Shown here: piece by piece, positions 5,769 through 23,748 of the stretch | How positions within the stretch are numbered: the first letter of the stretch is position 1 | Layout: each line of letters begins with the position of its first letter | Source of the DNA: an uncultured Acidobacteriota bacterium | Lineage (GTDB): Bacteria; Acidobacteriota; UBA6911; RPQK01; CBDAPI01 | DNA: 64,000 nucleotides | NCBI GenBank assembly: GCA_964565865.1 | Contig: CAZMGM010000003.1 | Location: forward strand, 6,572 to 70,571 | Reading direction: 5' to 3' | Program-made: the position numbers and the translations under genes | The notes under the pieces: model-generated | Seen by the model: only the letters and a program-made list of their open reading frames with translations | Databases searched by the model: none | Told to the model about the DNA's origin: nothing

Positions 5769-6191
5769 ATGAATTCCAAAGCTCTTCGTCTTCTCTGGAT
5801 TCTTCTCGTCCCGGCAATGAACTTTTCCTATTATTGGTCGTCGCTCGGGAGCTATTTTGTTTCCGAGGACTTTATTTTCCTGGTCCGGTCGCAAGACCCG
5901 TGGCAAACATTCGGGTCTCTCCAGGACAGATGGGTTCTCCCTGTGGGCCTGGTTTTCTGGAAACTTACGGTAGAGTTGTTCGGATACTCGGCTCCGGCTC
6001 ACCGTCTTTGTAATCTCCTCGTCCATTTCCTTAACGTGGCCCTTTTTTACCGGCTGTTGCGTGCGACGATCCAAGACAGGGAGGTGAGCCTTCTGGCAGT
6101 GGTCATTTTCTGTCTCTTCCTCATTCATCCCGAGGCAGTGCCAGGGCTCTCCGGGCACGGTGGTCTACCGATGGAACTAAAGCCATTTTGA
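5769..6191 (+). CDS. Hypothetical hydrophobic protein, possibly a truncated N-terminal fragment of a larger membrane glycosyltransferase-like protein
   Basis: 141-aa ORF with several hydrophobic segments (LLWILLVPAMNF…, LLAVVIFCLFLI…). No recognisable catalytic motif. It is followed by about 200 nt without a coding continuation. Confidence 0.3.
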   Translation: MNSKALRLLWILLVPAMNFSYYWSSLGSYFVSEDFIFLVRSQDPWQTFGSLQDRWVLPVGLVFWKLTVELFGYSAPAHRLCNLLVHFLNVALFYRLLRATIQDREVSLLAVVIFCLFLIHPEAVPGLSGHGGLPMELKPF

Positions 6192-8059: not shown

Positions 8060-8347
8060 TTTTTCGTTAAGATACTACTACTGAGTAGGTCGTAATTCCA
8101 GATATTACACCTCTTGCCAACGATTCAGGGGCCGTAACCTGGTTTCTCCCGCTTCCGATGTATTTTCCTGCAGGCACCTCTTGGGTTGGGCGAGATCACG
8201 GCGCATAGGCGCGCCTCCTGCTGTGGGCGGCCATCACGAGACAACATTCGGTCCGGACTTGTTCTAAGGGCCTTTGAAGGCATCGGAGCCAGTACACACT
8301 GTTGACTGATTTTAAGTTTAGATTAGACTCGTCTACCCGGCAACACG

Positions 8348-8947
8348 ATGGCGGTCTCTAACGTTACAATAGTCTCTATGCGCAAACATCCTCCGGCATT
8401 TGCCCTGCTGTGGTTGGCCCTGGCCTGGAGCCTCTATGGGCAGGACATGGAGCTGAAAGCAAGGTCTATGTTAAAGGGTACCCTCCCTATCGGGTTCCCA
8501 ACGGAAATCCTGGATGCGGGGTTTGCCGTCATCGAGCTGACCATAATCAACAAGGGTGAATCGTCGAAGGAAGTGAGTCCCGATACAATTCTGACGTGGT
8601 CGCCCAAGAAAAAGCGGCTATCCCGTGTACTGCCCTCCAAGATTATGCCCAGAATGATGAAATTCTACCGGGGTCAGAATAGAATTGGCGGAGACATCTA
8701 CACGGGCTCCAGTCTCCCTCCAGGAGGGAATTCGGGGGGCGTGACTGCCGGTTCTAGGGCCAGGTCATATTCGGTCGTAGCCATCCAGCAACTACGGATT
8801 ATCCTGGAAGGGTATCAATTGAAAAAAGGCGCTCTGGAAGGGGGAGAATCCATTCAGGGTTACATTTACGTCAAGTCGAAGAAGCGGGGTGTGCAGTTGG
8901 CAGGGGGAAAGGTAGAAATAGACCAAACAAGCGCCGTGATTGAGTGA
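8348..8947 (+). CDS. Hypothetical secreted protein (signal peptide)
   Basis: N-terminal signal peptide MRKHPPAFALLWLALAWSLYGQ. No recognisable domain. Lies in an AT-rich region. Confidence 0.45.
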   Translation: MAVSNVTIVSMRKHPPAFALLWLALAWSLYGQDMELKARSMLKGTLPIGFPTEILDAGFAVIELTIINKGESSKEVSPDTILTWSPKKKRLSRVLPSKIMPRMMKFYRGQNRIGGDIYTGSSLPPGGNSGGVTAGSRARSYSVVAIQQLRIILEGYQLKKGALEGGESIQGYIYVKSKKRGVQLAGGKVEIDQTSAVIE

Positions 8948-9549: not shown

Positions 9550-10143
9550 TGCAGTAGGGGGGATGATGCCTCCACCAAGATTGAATCATTTTCCCTTTTT
9601 CCTGGTCAACTCTCCCACCTAGCTCGACCCCTTTGGGAGTTCCTGGCTCCCACCACCTGGCCATCTTGCCGAATTCCAACACAGTAGGCTCCACCAAAGT
9701 AGGTCGACAGAGATTTCCAGTACCTTACCTGGTAGGCGATTTACTCCAGCGCTTGTCGGGTATTTTCTCCGAAGCCTGGTACTCACTTCAGGACGCCGTC
9801 CTCAGAGTGGAGCCCACGGACGTTGCACCGCACTTTCGAGGGAAAACTCAAAATCAATGAGTTTGGAGATCACCGGAAGGAGCGAAGTTCTGATTCGGGT
9901 GATTGCCCCGCTTCCGATGACAGCTCAACTCAATGATCCTAGAGAACAAGGGTGGGGTGCTCATCGTGGGGATTGTATGTCCGGGGGCCCGTCGTGTCTT
10001 GGCCGAAGTTTTCTTCGGCCTTGTCGCTCTCGAAGTTAGGTCGGAAGAACACTAAACCTCTAACTCGTGTCCTGGTATACTCGGGCTCGGTCGCCAGGAT
10101 GAGAAATCAGTCCGGCCCATCCCTTCGCTACAAGAAGCGTGAG

Positions 10144-13480: not shown

Positions 13481-14083
13481 TCATTCGACGAGAATGGTTC
13501 TTCGCCCTTCAACCTTGATACGGTTCTGGCATACCAGGCGAAGGGCCTCGGGGTAGATTTCGTGCTCGATCTCCAGGATCCGGGCAGAGAGTGTCTCTTC
13601 ATCATCGTCGTCCATCACCGGGACGGCCCGCTGGATGATGATGGGGCCATGATCCAGTTCTTCATCTACAAAGTGGACTGTGCAGCCAGAGACTTTGGCG
13701 CCCCACGCAATGGCCTGTTGCTGAGCGTGCAGACCGGGAAAAGAAGGCAGCAGGGAGGGATGAATGTTGAGAATACCGGTCGGGAAACTTTGCACAAAGA
13801 AGGGACTCAACAGCCTCATGAATCCGGCCAGGCAAACAATCTGCGTGCCGGCCTCTTGAAGTCTGCACACCACCTCCCTGTCGAATTCCTCTCTCGATTT
13901 TCCCAGGGGCTGGATGCACCAGTTTGCGTAACCCTTGTCCCGTGCCCATTCGAGACCGGGGGCCTCTGAAAGGTCGGAGACGACGGCGACGATGCGGGCC
14001 GGGATCTTGCCTTGCTCAATAGCGGCTGCGAGAGCTATGAAATTGGAACCCCTTCCGCTCAGGAGAACAGCAACGTTTTTCAT
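13481..14083 (-). CDS. purN: Phosphoribosylglycinamide formyltransferase
   Basis: Formyl_trans_N motifs VLLSGRGSN, NIHPSLLP and the conserved HFVDEELDHGPII. Confidence 0.9.
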   Translation of the reverse strand: MKNVAVLLSGRGSNFIALAAAIEQGKIPARIVAVVSDLSEAPGLEWARDKGYANWCIQPLGKSREEFDREVVCRLQEAGTQIVCLAGFMRLLSPFFVQSFPTGILNIHPSLLPSFPGLHAQQQAIAWGAKVSGCTVHFVDEELDHGPIIIQRAVPVMDDDDEETLSARILEIEHEIYPEALRLVCQNRIKVEGRRTILVE

Positions 14084-15150
14084 TGCAACTGAACTTCCTG
14101 GTTGCCCTCCCTGATCTCGCCAACCACAAAATATGGTTCATTCCGGTTTTGAAGGTATCCCTGAACCCGATCGAAGCGTTGAGGAGAAACGACCAGAATG
14201 ATTCCCAATCCCATATTGAAGGTTCGATACATCTCCTGCTGAGCAATACCACCCAGGCTACGAATTAACCGAAAAATAGGTAGGACCTCCCAGCTTCCTT
14301 CTTCTACAATTGCGTCTAGGTGAGAGGGCAGGATTCGATCAAGATTGCCGGGAATACCTCCGCCCGTGACGTGCGCAACCGCATGGAGATCATCTGCCTG
14401 AATCAGCTCTCGGAGAACGGGAAGATAGTTACGATGTGGTTCCAGCAGTTCCTCACCTAGAGATCTGCCTACATCCTCGATATGTGCACCGGGTGGGATT
14501 CCCTTCACCTCAAAAAAGAGCTTTCTAACCAGCGAGAAGCCGTTCGTGTGCAGGCCAGACGAGGGAAGTCCGAGCAAAAGGTCTCCCTTTACAACACGCT
14601 CTGGACCCAGAAGCTTGGCCTGGTCGGCCACCCCCACTACGAAGCCCGCCAGATCATACTCCCCATCGGAATAAAAATCCGGCATTTCGGCGGTCTCCCC
14701 TCCCAACAAGGCACAATGGGACTCGCGGCAGGCACGTGCCAGACCGCTCACAACGGCCTCTATCACACCCGGGTCCAGACGTCCGGAAGCAATGTAGTCC
14801 ATGAAGAACAGCGGCAGGGCGCCCTGGACAAGGATATCGTTAACGCAGTGGGAGACCAGATCGATGCCGACTGTTTCGTGGACACCCGTCATGAAGGCTA
14901 TTTTCAGCTTGGTACCGACTCCATCAACGCTCGATACGAGGACCGGGATTTGCAGGCTCGAAAAATCAGGCCGGAACAATGCCCCGAAGAGACCTATGTC
15001 ACCTATGACCTCCGGGGTAAAGGTGTCGCGTGCCAGATTCTTGATACGCTCCTTGGCCTGGTTGGCCCGCTGGATATCCACACCCGCGCCCGCGTACGTG
15101 AGGCCAGCCCCGGCATCAGCTTTTCTGGAGCGTTGCCTTTGTTCGCTCAT
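14080..15150 (-). CDS. purM: Phosphoribosylformylglycinamidine cyclo-ligase (AIR synthetase)
   Basis: AIRS N- and C-domain signatures (GIGLFGALF…DGVGTK…HITGGG). 4-nt overlap with purN. Confidence 0.9.
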   Translation of the reverse strand: MSEQRQRSRKADAGAGLTYAGAGVDIQRANQAKERIKNLARDTFTPEVIGDIGLFGALFRPDFSSLQIPVLVSSVDGVGTKLKIAFMTGVHETVGIDLVSHCVNDILVQGALPLFFMDYIASGRLDPGVIEAVVSGLARACRESHCALLGGETAEMPDFYSDGEYDLAGFVVGVADQAKLLGPERVVKGDLLLGLPSSGLHTNGFSLVRKLFFEVKGIPPGAHIEDVGRSLGEELLEPHRNYLPVLRELIQADDLHAVAHVTGGGIPGNLDRILPSHLDAIVEEGSWEVLPIFRLIRSLGGIAQQEMYRTFNMGLGIILVVSPQRFDRVQGYLQNRNEPYFVVGEIREGNQEVQLQ

Positions 15151-15172
15151 AGAGAGCCACCATGGGCTGGGA

Positions 15173-16600
15173 CTAAGATCTCTCCAACTCGAAGAGTACT
15201 TTCTGCGATGTCCGAGGCGTGCGGGGAATGGGGTAGTCCCGATCGAAACAGGCTGAGCAAAAACCGTTTCCGGCTCGCACTGCGTCCTTCATGCCCTCCA
15301 CGCTCAGGTATGCGAGGCTATCGGCCTGGATGTGTTTCCGGATCTCTTCCACACTCATCTGATTGGCTATCAGCTCGGAATAGGTAGGTGTGTCAATGCC
15401 GTAATGACAGGGAGAGATAGTGGGTGGGGAGGCGACTCGCATGTGTACTTCGGCAGCTCCGGAGCTGCGCAGCATCTCGACAATCTTCTTGCTGGTCGTA
15501 CCCCTTACGATTGAATCGTCGATTACGATCAAGCGCTGATTTTTCAGCAGCTCACGAATGGGATTCAGTTTGACCTTGACTCCGAAATGACGGATGGATC
15601 GCTTTGGTTCGATGAAGGTTCGACCCACGTAGTGGTTTCGGATCAAACCAAACTGAAAGGGAATACCGGAGGCACTGGCGAACCCGAGGGCCGCAGTTAC
15701 ACCCGAGTCCGGTACCGGAAGCACGAAATCCGCCTCTTCCGGGTGTTCCAAAGCGAGTTGCTGACCCATACGGTAGCGGCTGGCATGAACACTTTTTTCG
15801 AACACCTTCGAGTCTGGTCGGGCAAAGTAGACGTGCTCGAAGATGCAGTGCGCGGTTCGCTGCGGCTCAACGATGGTCCATGAAGCCAGGTGTTCCCCCT
15901 GCATCTGGACGGCCTCGCCCGGATTGACGTCCCGGACATATTTCGCCCCGATCAGATCAAAGGCACAGGTTTCCGATGCGACAACCCAGCTGTCATTCAG
16001 TTTGCCTAGGCAGAGAGGGCGGACGCCAAACGGATCCCTAGCCGCCCAGATGCCCTCCGGGCTGGCCAGCACCAGAGAAAAGGCTCCCGCTACTCTCCCG
16101 AAGACCTCTCGAATAGCTTCTCCTATGTCCCGGTGCCGGGAACGTGCCAGAAGATGAAGCATGACCTCGCTGTCGGTGGTAGACCGAAAAATTGCTCCCT
16201 GGGCCTCGAGTTCCAAGCGGATCTGTTCCGCCTGCAGGAGATTGCCGTTGTGTCCCAGGGCCATCTGACCTCGCACCGAGTCGGTCACAATGGGCTGGGC
16301 ATTGGCTAGATTGCTCTCCCCGGTAGTCGAGTAGCGGACGTGCCCGATTGCGGCTGTCCCTGCGAGACCGTTCAACTCTTTGTCGCTAAATACGTCCGCC
16401 ACGTATCCCATTCCGTGGCGCTGATGGAGTTGACCATGGTTCAGAGTAACAATGCCCGCCGATTCCTGGCCTCTGTGCTGCAGCGCATAGAGCCCCAGAT
16501 ACGTCATCCTCGCCGCTTCAGGATGTTGTGAAATGGCGAAGACACCACATTCGTCGTGAAACTTGTCGTCAAGGAACGCTGTACTCCATCCAGACTTCAA
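15173..16600 (-). CDS. purF: Amidophosphoribosyltransferase
   Basis: N-terminal nucleophile CGVFAI, glutamine-amidotransferase class II domain and a PRTase domain. Confidence 0.9.
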
Positions 16601-18882
16601 TTGTGAAAAGCCTCCTCAAAAGAAGACTCCCAGGCGTGCTTCAACTCGTGGACCGAAACGTTGATCAGGTTCCGTTGGTTCAAGGTGATCTCGAAATCGT
16701 TTTCTCCCACCACTCCGATCCGGGTTACTGGAACTCCTCTAAATTGTTGCAAAAAATGAGTTTCGTCATCCTTGTGAATTGAAACGACAGCTCTGGATGA
16801 AGTTTCGCTGAGTAGAAAGTGGTCAGGTCGTAGCCTCCCGGATTCAAATTCCGCCTTCAGGCCCAGAGATCCATACAGGCACGATTCCACAAGGCCAAAA
16901 AGTAGACCTCCCTCGGAGAGATCGTGGGCCGAACGGATGAGTCCCGCCCGAATAGCAGATAGAAGTCTCTCCTGTAGTCTTTTTTCCACCCGCATGTCCA
17001 GACTTGGTATGGGGCCCTCGAGGGGAGTCCCAAGCAGCTGCAAGTAGACGCTGCCGCCAAGTTCGGCTCGCGTTTCTCCCAGCACAAACACTATGTGGCC
17101 TGCTTTCTGGAAGCTCGAAGGACAGACATTCTCCAGTCTTTCGACTTTTCCAATCATGCCGATCACCGGTGTGGGTAGAATCCCCGTCCCGTCCGTTTCA
17201 TTATAGAAGCTTACGTTCCCTCCTGTAATCGGAGTGCCAAAGAACGTGCAAGCTTGTCCCATGCCTGCAACGGCCTCCGCAAACTGCCACATCACTTCCG
17301 GATTTTCCGGATTGGCGAAGTTCAGACAGTTTGTGGCAGCCAGGGGTAGAGCTCCCGAACAGACCAGATTTCGGCAACTCTCCGCGACTGCGTGCTGAGC
17401 TCCCCGCCGTGGATCCAGGTAACAGAAGAAGGGATTCCCGTCCAGGCTCATAGCTAGAGCCCCACTCCCCTGCTTCAGCCTGAGCACGGCAGCATCGCTG
17501 CCGGGGCCCACCACCGTGTTGGTCTGTACCTGATAGTCATACTGCCGATACACCCAAAGGCGGCTGCACAGTTGAGATGAGACCGCCATGTTTGTGAGCA
17601 GCTTATTGTAGTCTTCAGGTTCGGAAAACGTCCGCTCTCTCCAGTCGGCCAGGGTTTCCAGATAGGCCGGGCGCCTGGTGGGTCGTGCATAGGCCGGAGC
17701 TTCATCGGTAAGGGCCCGGTTGGGGATTTCGGCTACCTTGGTCCCCCGGTCATAAACCACCAGGTTTCCGTGATCCTTCACTTCGCCAATCACAACGGCA
17801 TCGAGGTCCCATTTAGAAAAGATTTTCTTCACGTTCTCCTCGCTGCCTTTTTGGCACACGAGGAGCATCCTTTCCTGGGATTCCGAAAGCATGAGCTCGT
17901 ATGGACTCATTCCCGGTTCACGCTGAGGGACTCGGTCCAGATGGATTTCGACCCCTCGATCTGCCCGTCCTCCCATTTCACAGGAAGAGCAGGTCAAACC
18001 GGCTCCTCCCATGTCCTGAATCCCGACGATCATACCGGAGTGCATAGCTTCCAGGCAGGCTTCCAGGAGGAGCTTTTGCAGGAACGGGTCCCCCACCTGC
18101 ACAGTGGGTCGCTTAGAGTCTTCGCCCTCCTCGAATTGCTCGGAGGCCATGGTCACTCCGTGGATTCCATCCCGTCCTGTCTTTGCACCCACATAGATTA
18201 CGGGATTGCCGACACCCGAAGCTCTTGCGTAAAAAATGCTTTCCCTGGGAGCAACCCCGAGGCAGTACACGTTGACGAGTGGGTTGCTGCCGTAGTGTTC
18301 TTCGAAAATTACTTCTCCGCCAACCGTCGGAATGCCCATACAGTTCCCGTAGCCCCCGACCCCTGCGACGACTCCTTCCATGATGTACTGATTGCGGGTC
18401 CGGGCAAGCGGACCAAAGTGCAGGGCGTTCATGACAGCGATGGGCCGGGCACCCATGGTGAAGACGTCGCGAATGATCCCACCTACTCCCGTGGCCGCTC
18501 CCTGGTAGGGTTCGATAAAGGATGGATGGTTGTGTGACTCGATCTTGAAGACAGCCGTCTGGCCGTCCCCAATATCCACGACGCCGGCGTTTTCCCCAGG
18601 TCCCTGGATCACCTGGGCGCCTTCGATTGGAAGCTTCTTGAGGTGAGTCCGTGAGCTTTTGTAGCTGCAGTGCTCGGACCACATCACGGAGAATATGCCG
18701 AGCTCCGTGAGATTGGGAGTACGACCCAGGCTCCCGCAAATTTCCTCAAACTCTTCCGGGGTCAGGCCATGGCTGGCAACGAGCTCGGACGTGATTTTCA
18801 CGTTTCCGTTGTTATGCAAGTGAGTACTAGCTCCGGACCTCTCTGAGAGATCCGACAATGGAAGCGAAAAGCCTGAGTCCAT
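16597..18882 (-). CDS. purL: Phosphoribosylformylglycinamidine synthase II (large subunit)
   Basis: 761 aa with a duplicated AIRS-like architecture. 4-nt overlap with purF. The longest ORF overlaps purQ by 56 nt, so the true start may lie downstream. Confidence 0.9.
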
Positions 18883-19528
18883 CGGCCGACCCCAGAAGAG
18901 CCTCCGAGGCCCGTTCCGGGTGTGGCATCATGCCCAGGACATTACCTCCCGAATTGACGATCCCGGCGATGTTATTAAGGGAACCGTTGGGGTTGGCTTG
19001 TGGCGTTACCCTCCCGTCCCTATCGACATAACGAAAGATAACCTGGCCGTCTGCCTCCAGTGCATCCAGCTCAGCCGGCGGAAGGAAAAAGCTGCCATCG
19101 TTATGAGCGATCGGAATCTGGAGGCGTTCCCCCTCGCTTAGGCCAGAAGTAAAGGGGGTGTTCGCCTGTTCAGTACGAAGAAACACGGGTTGACAGAGAA
19201 ACTTCAGCCTGGCATTTCTGAGCAGAGCTCCGGGCAACAGACCCGCTTCCTGCAGGATCTGGAAACCGTTGCAGATGCCCAGGACCAGACCGCCCCGGTC
19301 TGCATGTTTCTTGACACTTTCCATGATCGGGGAAAACTTAGCGATGGCGCCGCTACGCAGGTAATCACCGTAGGAAAATCCCCCGGGAAGGATGATGATA
19401 TCCACATCCCGCAGGTTCAGATCCTGATGCCAGAGGAAAACCACCTCCCCTTCAGCGACATGCTTGATCACGAAATATGTGTCATGATCACAATTCGAGC
19501 CCGGAAAGACGACCACACCAAATTTCAC
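18827..19528 (-). CDS. purQ: Phosphoribosylformylglycinamidine synthase I (glutaminase subunit)
   Basis: Class I glutamine amidotransferase with the catalytic nucleophile in GICNGFQ. Confidence 0.9.
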
Positions 19529-19767
19529 GATATTTGCCGGATCTCAAAATCTTCAATAATGGGGTTTGAGAGTACGTCCGCGGCAATCTGCTCGCTGAGT
19601 CGGGTGACTACAGCCTCGTCTTCGTCGTCGATCTCAAGCTCGAAGTAACGGCCCTGGCGAACCTGGGATACTTCTTCATGCCCCAGTTTCTTGAGCGAGC
19701 GCTGGATCGCCTGACCCTGTGGATCTAGCACTTCTTGTTTCAGCTTGACAACGATCTGGACCTTCAT
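19525..19767 (-). CDS. purS: Phosphoribosylformylglycinamidine synthase subunit PurS
   Basis: About 80-aa PurS fold, [29 protein letters not shown]…; start at ATG 19767. Confidence 0.85.
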
Positions 19768-19957
19768 GAGAAATGCAGCCCCTCCTGTCGCTTTCGCGAA
19801 CGCGGTCATTCTAGCAGTCCATGGTGATAGTCGCTAGCGGGCGCAAACCCTCCTCGCCGATGCGCTTCGACGTGGTCTGCGTCGGTTCGCCTTGCATCTG
19901 GGACCACGGCGCCCGTAGCGCGACCCTCGGGACTTTCACCACGGGCTGCTGACACTA
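19768..19957 (-). promoter_or_regulatory. Structured ~190-nt leader upstream of purS; candidate cis-regulatory RNA of undetermined class
   Basis: GC-rich non-coding spacer between the BMC-P stop and the purS ATG. It has long-range complementary segments (CGGGCGC…GCGCCCG; CGUGGUC…GACCACG). The only ORF in it (19806..20051, minus) is low-complexity. Confidence 0.3.
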
Positions 19958-20233
19958 TTAGGTGTCGAGCAGATCCACCTGATCCACTACTCCCACGACC
20001 GCCGCGTCCACCGGTGTGTAAAACTCCCCCAGGACGTTCATGGCCGCCCATCCATCGAGGGTGCAGAGCACTCGGTCGCCCACGCCGGAGTCGGCTCCAT
20101 CGATGGCAAGGACCTGTTCGCCACGCTCCTCTCCTTTGGGAGTAAGAGGCTGAACGAGAAGAAGTTTCTGTCCCTCGAAACAGGAATCCTTCTTAGTAGA
20201 AAAAAGCTGATCGACTACTCTTCCGATGATCAT
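19958..20233 (-). CDS. BMC vertex protein (BMC-P, EutN/CcmL family), paralog 3
   Basis: 91 aa with the PF03319-like pattern MIIGRVVDQLFSTKKD…GQKLLLVQP…VLAIDGADSGVGDRVL…VVGVVDQVDL. 4-nt overlap with the upstream paralog. Confidence 0.85.
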   Translation of the reverse strand: MIIGRVVDQLFSTKKDSCFEGQKLLLVQPLTPKGEERGEQVLAIDGADSGVGDRVLCTLDGWAAMNVLGEFYTPVDAAVVGVVDQVDLLDT

Positions 20234-20508
20234 GTCGGGGAGCCCGGAAAGTTGGCCCTATCCAAAATTCCGACAATCGAGCAGTCGGATGGCACACGAT
20301 CCGGGTACCAGGGGAAGCTTCCCTCTTTCCCGGTTACGTAAAAAACAAGTTCCCCTGGTCCTGCCCCCACCGAGTCAAGGGCTACGCGGATGGGTCCCAC
20401 GGGATGACCTGTACGGTCGATCGGCCTGACCAGGAGGATTTTGTGGCCGGTCAGTGACGGATCCTTGATGGTAGTGACAACCGTTCCGACGATTTCGCCC
20501 AGGTTCAT
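20230..20508 (-). CDS. BMC vertex protein (BMC-P, EutN/CcmL family), paralog 2
   Basis: 92 aa, MNLGEIVGTVVTTIKDPSLTGHKILLVRP…ALDSVGAGPGELV…CSIVGILD. 4-nt overlaps on both sides. Confidence 0.85.
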   Translation of the reverse strand: MNLGEIVGTVVTTIKDPSLTGHKILLVRPIDRTGHPVGPIRVALDSVGAGPGELVFYVTGKEGSFPWYPDRVPSDCSIVGILDRANFPGSPT

Positions 20509-20792
20509 AGTTTGGACGTGGGGGTTCCATCGAAGTCGACGGCGTCGACGATTCCGACAATGGAGCAGTCCACCGGATGATCGGTCAATCCGTTGGCCAT
20601 CCGGGCTGAACTGCCTCGTACGATGATGACGGTCTCGCCTGCTCCGGCGCCGACTGTGTCGACCGCCACATGGTACCCGGAGGGATTCCCCGTCTCCGGA
20701 TCGATGGTCTTAACGATGAGTAGCTTTTTCCCCTGGAGCTTCTCGTCCTTACGGGTGGCGACTACGGTCCCGGCAACTTTACCTAGAAGCAT
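20505..20792 (-). CDS. BMC vertex protein (BMC-P, EutN/CcmL family), paralog 1
   Basis: 95 aa, MLLGKVAGTVVATRKDEKLQGKKLLIVK…AVDTVGAGAGETVIIV…CSIVGIVD. Confidence 0.85.
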   Translation of the reverse strand: MLLGKVAGTVVATRKDEKLQGKKLLIVKTIDPETGNPSGYHVAVDTVGAGAGETVIIVRGSSARMANGLTDHPVDCSIVGIVDAVDFDGTPTSKL

Positions 20793-20830
20793 GGGTGCTC
20801 AGAACCTTCTTTTCGGAATCGGGAAGTTGG

Positions 20831-21118
20831 TTATTTAGGGATGATGGGAAGACGTTCATCCAGGCTCGAATGGGGTCGCGGTATTACGTGAACGCTTACT
20901 AGCTCTCCTACCCGTCGAGCTGCGGCAGCTCCTGCGTCGGTGGCGGCTTTGACCGCGGCTACCTCTCCTCGAACGATGGCTGTCACGAGGCCGCTGCCGA
21001 TCTTTTCATAGCCAACCAGGGTAACCTTGGCAGCCTTAACCATCGCGTCGGCGGCTTCAACCATGGCAATGAGACCCTTCGTCTCTACCATTCCCAAAGC
21101 TTCCAGCGAATCGGCCAT
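20831..21118 (-). CDS. BMC hexameric shell protein (BMC-H, PduA/EutM/CcmK family)
   Basis: Canonical PF00936 sequence: [54 protein letters not shown]…VHVIPRPH. Confidence 0.9.
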
Positions 21119-21151
21119 TTCCGGTAGTGTCTCCCAGGATTCTGGACCTGC

Positions 21152-21985
21152 TTATCGGTCCCTGTTCATCTCCAGTACAACTCTCTCAACGATCTCATCG
21201 ATTTCCCGCGGAGATAACGTGAGAGGGTGTTCGCCGTGGGCAGTTACGGGACAGTCAGTCTGCCGCGAAACTGGAGCATTTATACCATACTTCCCACTGA
21301 CGTCAAAAAGTTTGTCCACAGATTCCCGAGTGAGTAAACTCTGCTTTCCAAGGATGCGTGTCAGTAAAGAGATCTTGGCAAAATGTTCGAGAATTTCCAT
21401 GCGGAAAAAGGCCTTTTGCAGATCCGATCCCATAGTGATTGCGCCGTGATTGGCAAGCAGGATTGCGTTGTGTTCGGGGACTAGATCAGTGAGGCTGTTG
21501 GCCAGTTCATCGGTGGAAGGAGTCCCGTAGGGCGCGATCGGGACACAGCCCAGAGTGAGTACAACCTCGGGCATAAGGGCTTCACGGAGTGGAAGACCGG
21601 CAACCGCGTGTGCGGTTCCGTACACGGGATGTCCGTGACAGACCCCCGTCACGTCAGGACGGCCCCGGTAGACTAGCACGTGCATTTTGATTTCACTGGA
21701 AACTCCGCGCCCTCCTTCCAGCTGGTGTCCCTCAAGGTCAGTTGTAACCAGGTCTTCAGGCTGCAGATCTCCCTTGCACAAGCCTGTCGGAGTGGCAAGC
21801 AGCCGTTCTCCCATTCGGATCGACAGGTTGCCTTCGTTGGCGCAGATCAGGTCTTTGGCATACATTCTCCGGCCGATCTCACAGATGAGTTCCCGCGCTT
21901 GCCATTCGATCATCATCAGCTCCGGGTTCCGAGCTCCCAGTTCCGGGCTGGCACTGGTCGTCACTCCCGCCATTACAGGTTCCAC
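21152..21985 (-). CDS. Class II aldolase (fuculose-/rhamnulose-phosphate aldolase-like) with a C-terminal encapsulation-peptide-like amphipathic helix
   Basis: Aldolase_II motifs: Zn-ligand histidines in VCHGHPV and the conserved LLANHGAITMG. About 40 aa past the domain end there is a linker followed by an amphipathic helix (LSPREIDEIVERVVLEM). Alternative start MM at 21913. Confidence 0.8.
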   Translation of the reverse strand: MEPVMAGVTTSASPELGARNPELMMIEWQARELICEIGRRMYAKDLICANEGNLSIRMGERLLATPTGLCKGDLQPEDLVTTDLEGHQLEGGRGVSSEIKMHVLVYRGRPDVTGVCHGHPVYGTAHAVAGLPLREALMPEVVLTLGCVPIAPYGTPSTDELANSLTDLVPEHNAILLANHGAITMGSDLQKAFFRMEILEHFAKISLLTRILGKQSLLTRESVDKLFDVSGKYGINAPVSRQTDCPVTAHGEHPLTLSPREIDEIVERVVLEMNRDR

Positions 21986-22070
21986 GTTCTACGAACCTTC
22001 AACCTGTAACTGTCAACTGTCAACCTTCAACCTTCAACTGTCAACCAGTAACCGGTAAGCCAGTCCCAGA
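21986..22070. repeat. Heptanucleotide tandem repeat (about 9 units, consensus AACYKTC), copy 1 of a dispersed family
   Basis: gaaccttc|aacctgt|aactgtc|aactgtc|aaccttc|aaccttc|aactgtc|aaccagt|aaccggt, in the divergent region between the aldolase and ruvA. Confidence 0.7.
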
Positions 22071-22088
22071 GCAGTCCGGTTCGCTATA

Positions 22089-22697
22089 ATGCAACCTATG
22101 CTTGCCCGACTCAGGGGAACGCTGACGGAGAAGTCGGCCGGCCAGATTATCATCGATGTGAACGGGGTAGGATACGAGGTGTTCATCCCTTTCTCCACTT
22201 ACTATGAACTGGCCGAACCGGGAGACAGAGTCACGCTTCACATTTACACTCATGTTAAAGAAAACGATCTGAGCCTTTATGGATTCTCGACTCAACGGGA
22301 AAAGGATCTTTTCAATCTGTTGATCCAAATTTCCGGCATCGGCCCCAAGCTGGGAGTGACTATTCTCTCGGGACTTCCAGCAGAGGAACTGGCCGAAGCG
22401 GTCGTGGCAGGTGACCTGGTGCGCTTGCATTCTATTCCGGGGGTGGGAAAGAAGACGGCAGAGCGGATCATTCTCGAGCTCAAGGAGAAGCTCGACCGGT
22501 TCCTTCCGGAGAGGTCCTCACAAGATGCTGCAAGGTCTGGCAGCGGGATGGGCGGCGACGTGGTCTCTGCCCTGGTTAATCTTGGTTACCAGAAGGCAGC
22601 TGCCGAGAAAGCCGTCAGCGCCATCAATAGGGAAGGGACGAATTGTGGCTTTCAGGCCCTCTTGAGGGGGGCTTTGAGTCACCTTTCTGGCTCTTAG
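22089..22697 (+). CDS. ruvA: Holliday junction DNA helicase RuvA
   Basis: RuvA N-terminal OB domain and HhH motifs (LIQISGIGPKLGVTIL; LHSIPGVGKKTAERI). Confidence 0.9.
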   Translation: MQPMLARLRGTLTEKSAGQIIIDVNGVGYEVFIPFSTYYELAEPGDRVTLHIYTHVKENDLSLYGFSTQREKDLFNLLIQISGIGPKLGVTILSGLPAEELAEAVVAGDLVRLHSIPGVGKKTAERIILELKEKLDRFLPERSSQDAARSGSGMGGDVVSALVNLGYQKAAAEKAVSAINREGTNCGFQALLRGALSHLSGS

Positions 22698-22722
22698 CCA
22701 GCGAAGAGGTTGAATCGTTCTT

Positions 22723-23748
22723 ATGGAAGAAGACAATCGCTTCCTCGATCCGTCCTTGAAGGATGGGGATCGATCGCTAGAGAACAGTTTGCGTCCGCGT
22801 GCGATGAAGGAGTTCATCGGACAGCCCAGGGTCAAGGAGAGCTTGGGTATCTCTATCCAGGCAGCCCTTCACCGCAGCGATCCCCTCGACCATGTGCTTT
22901 TATACGGCCCGCCGGGGCTTGGAAAAACGACCCTGGCTCAGATCATTGCTCAGGAATTGGGTGTGAACTTCAGGAGCACCTCGGGACCAACCGTAGAGAG
23001 ACGAGGTGATTTGGCAGCAATTCTGACCAACCTGGAACCGAATGATGTGCTCTTCATTGATGAGATTCACCGGCTTCACCCGGCCATCGAGGAAATCCTG
23101 TACCCGGCGATGGAGGATTTCAAGATTGACATCATCATCGGCGAGGGACCGGGTGCTCGGTCGATTTCCCTCGAAATTCCCCGGTTTACTCTGGTGGGGG
23201 CGACCACACGCAGCGGGCTGTTGACATCTCCTCTGCGGGCACGGTTCGGAATCTTACAGCGACTCGATTTTTATACCCAGGCAGACCTGGCTGAAGTGGT
23301 TCAACGATCGGCCGGGATACTCGGGATTGAGGTTGATCCAGGTGGCGCCGGAGAGATTGCAAAGCGCAGCCGTGGTACTCCTAGGATTGCCAACCGTCTG
23401 CTCAAGAGAGTCCGGGACTACGCTCAAGTCAGAGAAGACGGCTTTGTGGACGACGCGATTGCCTGCCGGGGGCTGGAGCTCATGAACGTAGATTCGCAAG
23501 GACTGGACGAGACCGACCGAAAGCTTCTGTTGACGATCATTGACAAGTTCGATGGAGGTCCGGTGGGCATCAAGACGATCTCGGCTGCGATTTCAGAGGA
23601 AACGGATGCCATTGAGGACATCTACGAGCCCTACCTGATCCAGGTAGGTTTCTTGAATCGGACTCGCAGGGGCCGAGTCGCTACACGGCTGGCCTTTGAA
23701 CACCTGGGAAAAACCTACGACCCAGCACCTCAGAAACGACTCTTCTAA
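22723..23748 (+). CDS. ruvB: Holliday junction DNA helicase RuvB
   Basis: AAA+ P-loop ([11 protein letters not shown]), sensor motifs and a RuvB winged-helix C-terminus. Confidence 0.95.

Follow-up and report, generated by a model that had tools for sequence, protein, structure and literature searches.

A class II aldolase with a predicted C-terminal encapsulation peptide in a reduced, ACI-like shell-gene module of an uncultured Acidobacteriota bacterium

Described aldolase microcompartments and the module between ruvAB and the purine genes

Class II aldolases that end in an encapsulation peptide have been described from several types of microcompartment (BMC) locus. When 23 class II aldolases from BMC loci were aligned with 12 others, a C-terminal peptide of ~17 residues, preceded by a linker of 23-81 residues, was found in 21 of the 23 BMC-associated enzymes (Aussignargues 2015, PMC4594438). 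The helices reported there, from loci of the PVM, PVM-like and GRM5 types, are 12-17 residues long, the linkers are described as unconserved, yet unusually Cys-rich, and the non-BMC aldolases are without the extension (PMC4594438). The ACI type is known from Acidobacteria only, for the most part from their subdivisions 4 and 6. Its main locus has a PF00596 aldolase carrying a C-terminal encapsulation peptide, one BMC-H gene and a BMC-P triplet, and also encodes a 2-hydroxyacid dehydrogenase (PF00389/PF02826) and three functionally uncharacterised proteins; its aldehyde dehydrogenase, which also bears an encapsulation peptide, is encoded at a satellite locus with an extra BMC-H or BMC-P gene beside it (Sutter 2021, PMC8217296). 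An encapsulation-peptide tail on this aldolase family is already known, including in Acidobacteria, and because it is already in the literature its presence in a further locus answers no open question. In the literature searched we found no experimental test of aldolase encapsulation peptides and no aldolase tail of the clade studied here that had been shown to target cargo.

The locus analysed here lies in a 64-kb stretch of DNA from an uncultured Acidobacteriota bacterium (the window). The aldolase gene is the first of an operon and is followed by genes for one BMC-H and three BMC-P shell proteins (Table 1), with gaps of 33 nt (aldolase stop to BMC-H) and 38 nt; the aldolase is thus encoded with shell protein genes. 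The ruvA and ruvB genes are divergent upstream of the aldolase, and purS, purQ, purL, purF, purM and purN come after the third BMC-P gene. This arrangement of a five-gene module between ruvAB and purS-purN (window 13481-23748) is kept in four related loci (L001-L003 and L094), whose aldolases are as little as 67% identical. Only ~150-190 nt separate the module from purS, so co-transcription with the purine genes is possible. A search of the operon for promoters and terminators gave no signal above background. The divergent ruvA/aldolase intergenic region contains a heptad tandem repeat, GTTGA[AC][AG] on the aldolase strand, of ~7.6 copies (21994-22054), several of which read TTGACA. A similar repeat precedes the 89%-identical aldolase of L002 (~9860-9915) and is absent in L003; the repeat in the window could be a regulatory array.

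Table 1. Features of the aldolase gene and the adjacent shell genes, in window coordinates
Feature	Position	Strand	Basis or remark
Class II aldolase ORF	21152..21985	minus	277 aa counted from GTG
24-codon N-terminal stretch of the GTG ORF, probably 5' leader, non-coding	21914..21985	minus	without homologue coverage
FucA-like catalytic domain, probable start ATG 21913 to DVSGKYG	21284..21913	minus	Pfam, fold match
Linker INAPVSRQTDCPVTAHGEHPLTLSP, 25 residues	21209..21283	minus	low pLDDT, without match in solved aldolases or NCBIfam models
Amphipathic C-terminal helix PREIDEIVERVVLEMNRD, predicted encapsulation peptide, S-P N-cap	21158..21211	minus	AlphaFold2, hydrophobic moment, conservation
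BMC-H shell hexamer	20831..21118	minus	Pfam BMC E 1.7e-29; NCBIfam EutM 140.8 vs cut-off 133
BMC-P shell pentamer 1	20505..20792	minus	Pfam EutN_CcmL E 4e-30
BMC-P shell pentamer 2	20230..20508	minus	Pfam EutN_CcmL E 1.5e-23; 4-nt overlap with gene 1
BMC-P shell pentamer 3	19958..20233	minus	Pfam EutN_CcmL E 4.6e-22; 4-nt overlap with gene 2

Like the aldolases of the PVM, PVM-like and GRM5 types, the enzyme of the window belongs to PF00596, has its extension at the C terminus, has a linker, of 25 residues, whose length falls within the published 23-81, and ends in an amphipathic helix, of 15-18 residues where 12-17 are published (PMC4594438). It differs from them in its host clade and locus, and in that part of its linker (CPVTAE) is conserved, whereas the published linkers are unconserved (PMC4594438). 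None of the partner genes of a PVM-type locus (Erbilgin 2014; Axen 2014), namely those for aldehyde dehydrogenase, phosphotransacylase, acetate kinase, the lactate/malate-type dehydrogenase and the DeoR regulator, is adjacent to the aldolase. Across the 64-kb window, covered by Pfam for part of the ORFs and by eye for the rest, we found no aldehyde dehydrogenase, phosphotransacylase, hydroxyacid dehydrogenase or other core enzyme, and nothing else related to microcompartments.

With the ACI type the locus shares a host among the Acidobacteria, as the names of its closest homologues indicate, a PF00596 aldolase with a C-terminal encapsulation-peptide tail, a single BMC-H gene, an adjacent BMC-P triplet and a main locus without an aldehyde dehydrogenase. 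The 2-hydroxyacid dehydrogenase (PF00389/PF02826) and the three unknown proteins of ACI were found neither in the operon nor among the window ORFs scanned, which are part of the total, and two further differences from ACI are the position of the five-gene module between ruvAB and purS-purN and the separate branch that the aldolase forms in the tree. Because these four ACI proteins are missing, we would call the module, going by its gene content, reduced ACI-like and not a full member of the ACI type.

The aldolase-H-P-P-P module, usually beside ruvA, was present in every context examined, that is, in the clade of the window, Terriglobia, Bryobacterales, Pyrinomonadaceae and a lineage with 9-Mb genomes, and in none of these contexts did an aldehyde dehydrogenase gene lie near it. 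Some of the modules have additional genes. In Terriglobia, genes for PF05635 '23S rRNA intervening sequence' proteins are interleaved among the BMC-P genes (L087 10308-11538; L005 11881-12363), as is a gene for a protein with TPR and CarboxypepD_reg domains in Pyrinomonadaceae (L052 11431-12471). In the 9-Mb-genome lineage (L095-L098), a 91-aa YHS-domain protein is encoded upstream of the module (5890-6172) and a 72-aa ORF overlaps the end of the last BMC-P gene (8143-8361); these may be small unknown proteins of the ACI type, and neither has a counterpart in the window.

The aldolase and its C-terminal extension

The aldolase ORF starts with GTG, and Pfam places the Aldolase_II domain at residues 33-206 of its 277 aa (E 5e-44). 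The closest homologues have 253-261 aa, align over ~91% of the query and begin with MIEWQ or MLEWQ. A 14-nt tandem repeat (21918-21949) lies within the first 24 codons of the ORF; in an 89%-identical relative the corresponding position, ahead of the ATG, is occupied by a short repeat of another sequence. Given where the homologues begin, and given that the leader codons overlap repeats that also lie upstream of the relative's ATG, translation probably starts at ATG 21913 (M25 of the ORF) to give a product of 253 aa, with ATG 21916 as the alternative candidate. A 277-aa protein initiated at GTG was rejected, its first 24 codons being repeat-laden and without homologues. The original prediction had the catalytic domain end in DVSGKYG, which is correct, at around residue 215, which is approximate and fits neither numbering exactly: the motif ends at residue 234 in ORF numbering and at residue 210 of the 253-aa protein. 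The linker it quoted, INAPVSRQTDCPVTAHGEHPLTLSP, corresponds exactly to residues 235-259 (211-235 of the 253-aa protein) and the amphipathic segment, REIDEIVERVVLEMN, equally exactly to residues 260-274 (236-250), after which the protein ends with RDR and a stop codon.

Solved FucA chains match the fold of the aldolase over ~207 of its 253 residues with a TM-score of 0.92 (normalised to the target). E74, H93, H95 and H156 are invariant in a 62-sequence family alignment, and we take them to be the equivalents of FucA E73, H92, H94 and H155, of which the Glu is catalytic and the three His bind Zn. With the Aldolase_II fold and, on this residue equivalence, the active-site Glu and metal-binding histidines of a class II (Zn-dependent), FucA-like enzyme, the protein is probably catalytically active. 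No NCBIfam equivalog cut-off was reached, the best score being for the OtnC-like 3-oxo-tetronate 4-phosphate decarboxylase (128.8 vs 250), with FucA at 119.5 vs 264. These NCBIfam scores do not support orthology to the characterised L-fuculose-1-P aldolase, so neither fuculose phosphate nor rhamnulose phosphate should be taken for granted as the substrate.

Comparison with aldolases from outside BMC loci had been proposed as a check on the extension, and the solved free-living FucA enzymes are indeed without it. E. coli FucA (PDB 1FUA and others) has the same fold at ~28-35% identity, and its C terminus aligns with the KYG segment common to both proteins, but it ends ~5 residues past that segment, with neither linker nor helix, whereas the aldolase of the window has both. 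The sequence match to solved fuculose-phosphate aldolases accordingly stops at the KYG segment, and all NCBIfam aldolase models end by residue 211. Since both the solved FucA enzymes and the NCBIfam models end at the catalytic domain, the last ~43 residues are, as far as sequence and fold comparison indicate, an add-on to the standard FucA fold.

The criteria of Kinney 2012 and Aussignargues 2015 for encapsulation peptides are a predicted amphipathic alpha-helix of ~15-20 residues at a terminus, a flexible and poorly conserved linker, no such extension on homologues from outside microcompartments, a gene located with shell protein genes, and a peptide both necessary and sufficient for loading cargo; we read this add-on against those that concern sequence. 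The original prediction of an amphipathic C-terminal segment of ~15 residues was borne out. AlphaFold2, run on the 253-aa protein with a 62-sequence alignment (mean pLDDT of the model 92.8), predicted a helix of 18 residues, SPREIDEIVERVVLEMNRD, at residues 235-252, with an average pLDDT of 94 for the block 241-250. Across the protein, the helical hydrophobic moment over 15 residues peaks in the tail, at EIDEIVERVVLEMNR (0.63), and only ~1% of shuffles of the 18-residue segment reached the observed moment (p ~0.01). On a helical wheel, which had been suggested as a check along with structure prediction, I262, I265, V266, V269, V270 and M273 (ORF numbering) lie inside an arc of 140 degrees, so that the tail came out as both helical and amphipathic. 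The tail is therefore predicted to be an amphipathic alpha-helix of the expected length at the expected place. The same helix terminates 120 of the 120 best database homologues, down to ~44% identity, when the C-termini are judged by reading, and 96 of these 120 match a strict motif pattern. The consensus, Φ(I/V) x L(Φ) (T/S)(R/Y) x E L x x L I E x A V x x Φ, has hydrophobic positions spaced 1, 4, 5, 8, 9 and 12 (Φ..ΦΦ..ΦΦ..Φ).

This spacing recalls the PduP18 and PduD20 targeting tags of the Salmonella Pdu system, quoted in PMC5405515 as MNTSELETLIRTILSEQL (PduP) and MEINEKLLRQIIEDVLRDMK (PduD), which have the same spacing at 1, 4, 5, 8, 9 and beyond with acidic residues between, as in ELETLIRTIL of PduP and KLLRQIIEDVL of PduD compared with EIDEIVERVV in the aldolase tail. 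The Pdu tags differ in that they are N-terminal, belong to different enzymes and have no detectable homology to the aldolase tail, and in that they are experimentally validated whereas the aldolase tail is predicted.

For the linker, the two AlphaFold2 blocks over residues 211-230 each have a mean pLDDT of 69. It had been described as a Pro/Thr/His-rich stretch of ~25 residues, and both the length and the composition hold for this one sequence, but conservation does not extend to the histidines. The part that follows the YG motif ranges from 43 to 116 residues between clades, and the sequence of the linker varies as well; its dN/dS in related clades exceeds that of the flanking parts and is ~3 times that of the helix. 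A Cys-Pro core (GCPVTAE) is conserved in the clade of the window (homologues P0002-P0046) and in Bryobacterales; in the window itself this motif reads CPVTAH (21236-21253). Elsewhere, the linkers of Vicinamibacteria have two cysteines and those of Pyrinomonadaceae a CQACGY…C pattern. The linker is thus flexible and poorly conserved overall, with a CPVTAE core that is conserved within several clades and hints at a further role.

Two other origins of the tail bear on these observations. It could be an artefact of annotation or sequencing, such as read-through or a frameshifted end, and errors do affect this gene in assemblies: on a 4.84-Mb contig of one close relative (protein P0055, L094 4203-5000) the aldolase is a truncated, frameshifted call of 184 aa with a garbled end next to intact shell genes, which reflects an indel error in long reads or else a genuine pseudogene. 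The probability of an artefact in the window is nevertheless close to nil, as the reading frame is continuous and the tail, present in all 120 homologues from independent assemblies, is under purifying selection. A RhaD-like extension was, like read-through, ruled out by the position and conservation of the tail.

The extension could also be an intrinsic part of this aldolase subfamily, for example an oligomer clamp or an active-site lid that prolongs the C terminus, known to be mobile in FucA, with the shell genes travelling along through shared ancestry only. The high pLDDT of the helix in a monomer model could reflect packing on the core, and the conserved Cys-Pro motif directly follows KYG, which itself lines up with the catalytic tail at the C terminus of FucA. 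Against such an origin, the length, terminal position, tether and hydrophobic spacing of the helix are those of known encapsulation peptides, and the wide variation of the linker between clades argues against a fixed structural role. We consider an intrinsic element highly improbable, also in light of the distribution of tails described below.

Tails and shell genes across Acidobacteriota

The closest named homologues of the aldolase and the related loci are from Acidobacteriota MAGs. We scanned one genome per species, which gave 80 related loci, nearly all from Acidobacteriota, in which shell genes were located by tblastn and the C-termini of the aldolases classified. An encapsulation-peptide-like tail with shell genes within 10 kb was found at 50 loci and a tail without shell genes within 10 kb at ~22 (13 of them with ~10 kb of sequence on both sides), while 6-7 loci had neither an amphipathic tail nor shell genes within 10 kb and none had shell genes within 10 kb of an aldolase without the tail. 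All 50 of the 50 shell-adjacent aldolases therefore carry the tail, usually with a gap of <300 nt to the nearest shell gene, and tail and shell genes are associated with a Fisher p of 0.0015 that is not corrected for phylogeny. The lack of this correction leaves some room for co-travel of an intrinsic element with the shell genes. The tail-less aldolases, however, form a Terriglobales clade that kept the catalytic domain and lost the helix; their C-termini have decayed to basic or polar, non-amphipathic sequences and they have no shell genes nearby.

According to the original prediction, homologues carrying the tail outside BMC loci would speak against an encapsulation peptide, and here the outcome was divided. 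The FucA enzymes and the 6-7 Terriglobales aldolases have no tail, as expected, but of the 72 homologues with a tail ~22 lack shell genes in their 10-kb flanks. In a neighbour-joining tree, some of these shell-less, tail-bearing loci group with shell-bearing Acidiferrales and others sit in a deep clade of subdivision 2. The Terriglobia show both states on one backbone, CofD-GDH-aldolase-[H-P-P-P]-ruvA-ruvB-HPPK, with the cassette present in L087 (8737-13348), L091 (6647-10405), L093 (6767-10243) and L005; in L084 (10001-11507) and L007 (9962-12998) the backbone is without the cassette and the aldolase has kept its tail.

In two shell-less, tail-bearing clades, dN/dS was 0.065-0.084 for the tail helix, 0.061-0.083 for the catalytic domain and 0.19-0.29 for the linker, values from comparisons in which synonymous sites are saturated. 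As the dN/dS of the helix is as low as that of the catalytic domain, the helix is functional in the shell-less clades too. There are two possible reasons: shell genes at another site in these genomes, or a function of the helix that does not require a shell. Shells elsewhere are plausible in view of the ACI satellite loci with their extra shell genes. Protein-database searches with a Terriglobia BMC-P and the BMC-H of the window, with matches listed at >=75% identity and nearly all >80%, turned up no relocated shell cassette and no second locus in close relatives; the four BMC contexts recovered, three of them from Terriglobia, had the canonical aldolase-H-P-P-P order only.

These loci raise the alternative that the helix is mainly a shell-independent element for self-association or regulation, acting, for instance, by clustering of tetramers or docking of a partner, and that loading into BMCs is secondary or restricted to some lineages. 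It would account for the aldolases that keep the tail at cassette-less sites (L084, L007 and the subdivision-2 'Acidoferrum' clade), for purifying selection there as strong as on the catalytic domain (dN/dS 0.065 vs 0.061) and for the three Terriglobia BMC-P contexts, which show the aldolase-linked site only and no relocated cassette; in the published model, moreover, encapsulation peptides aggregate cargo before the shell is recruited (PMC4594438). We nonetheless regard this explanation as unlikely, given that the tail is present in every shell-adjacent aldolase, that the Terriglobales clade lost the amphipathic helix together with the nearby shell genes, and that further shell genes at satellite loci, as in ACI, may still provide shells for the orphan aldolases. 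In Acidiferrales and the subdivision-2 'Acidoferrum' the cassette seems to have been cleanly removed and the helix kept; were shell genes truly absent from those genomes, the helix could have a shell-independent job, for example in shell-less enzyme clusters, a suggestion that we find doubtful.

The tail as a putative encapsulation peptide

The encapsulation-peptide layout proposed for the aldolase is supported by the shape of the helix, the linker, the Pdu-like spacing, the operon, the absence of the extension from FucA and the association with shell genes at 50 of 50 loci. We consider it likely that the last 43 residues are a C-terminal encapsulation-peptide module consisting of a flexible 25-residue tether and an 18-residue amphipathic helix. 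FucA is a homotetramer, so several helices would be exposed on each aldolase particle. Through their hydrophobic face, predicted to be formed by the six residues within the 140-degree arc, the helices would attach to the lumen side of the BMC-H from the same operon, to helices on other cargo proteins, or to both. The aldolase would in this way collect in the core of a microcompartment whose shell consists of the BMC-H and the three BMC-P proteins encoded next to it. There, a sugar phosphate, the presumed substrate, would be split by the aldolase into DHAP and an aldehyde, and the aldehyde would be handled by a putative partner, an aldehyde dehydrogenase whose gene lies at another genomic site, as in the ACI type. 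We infer shell binding, lumen location, substrate and partner enzymes alike from these comparisons.

On this reading, the module between ruvAB and the purine operon would be a genuine microcompartment module that has one or more cargo enzymes of its own, and a further clade of Acidobacteria would be added to those with known aldolase microcompartments. The analysis also yielded two by-products: a reduced five-gene module that is conserved across classes of Acidobacteria with no aldehyde-handling enzyme nearby, and a natural series of loci (cassette and tail, tail only, neither) that is usable for asking what encapsulation peptides do without shells. The tail-bearing aldolases at shell-less sites are the one aspect that may be worth pursuing; if their helix does have a shell-independent job, the tail of the aldolase in the window would be more than a loading tag.
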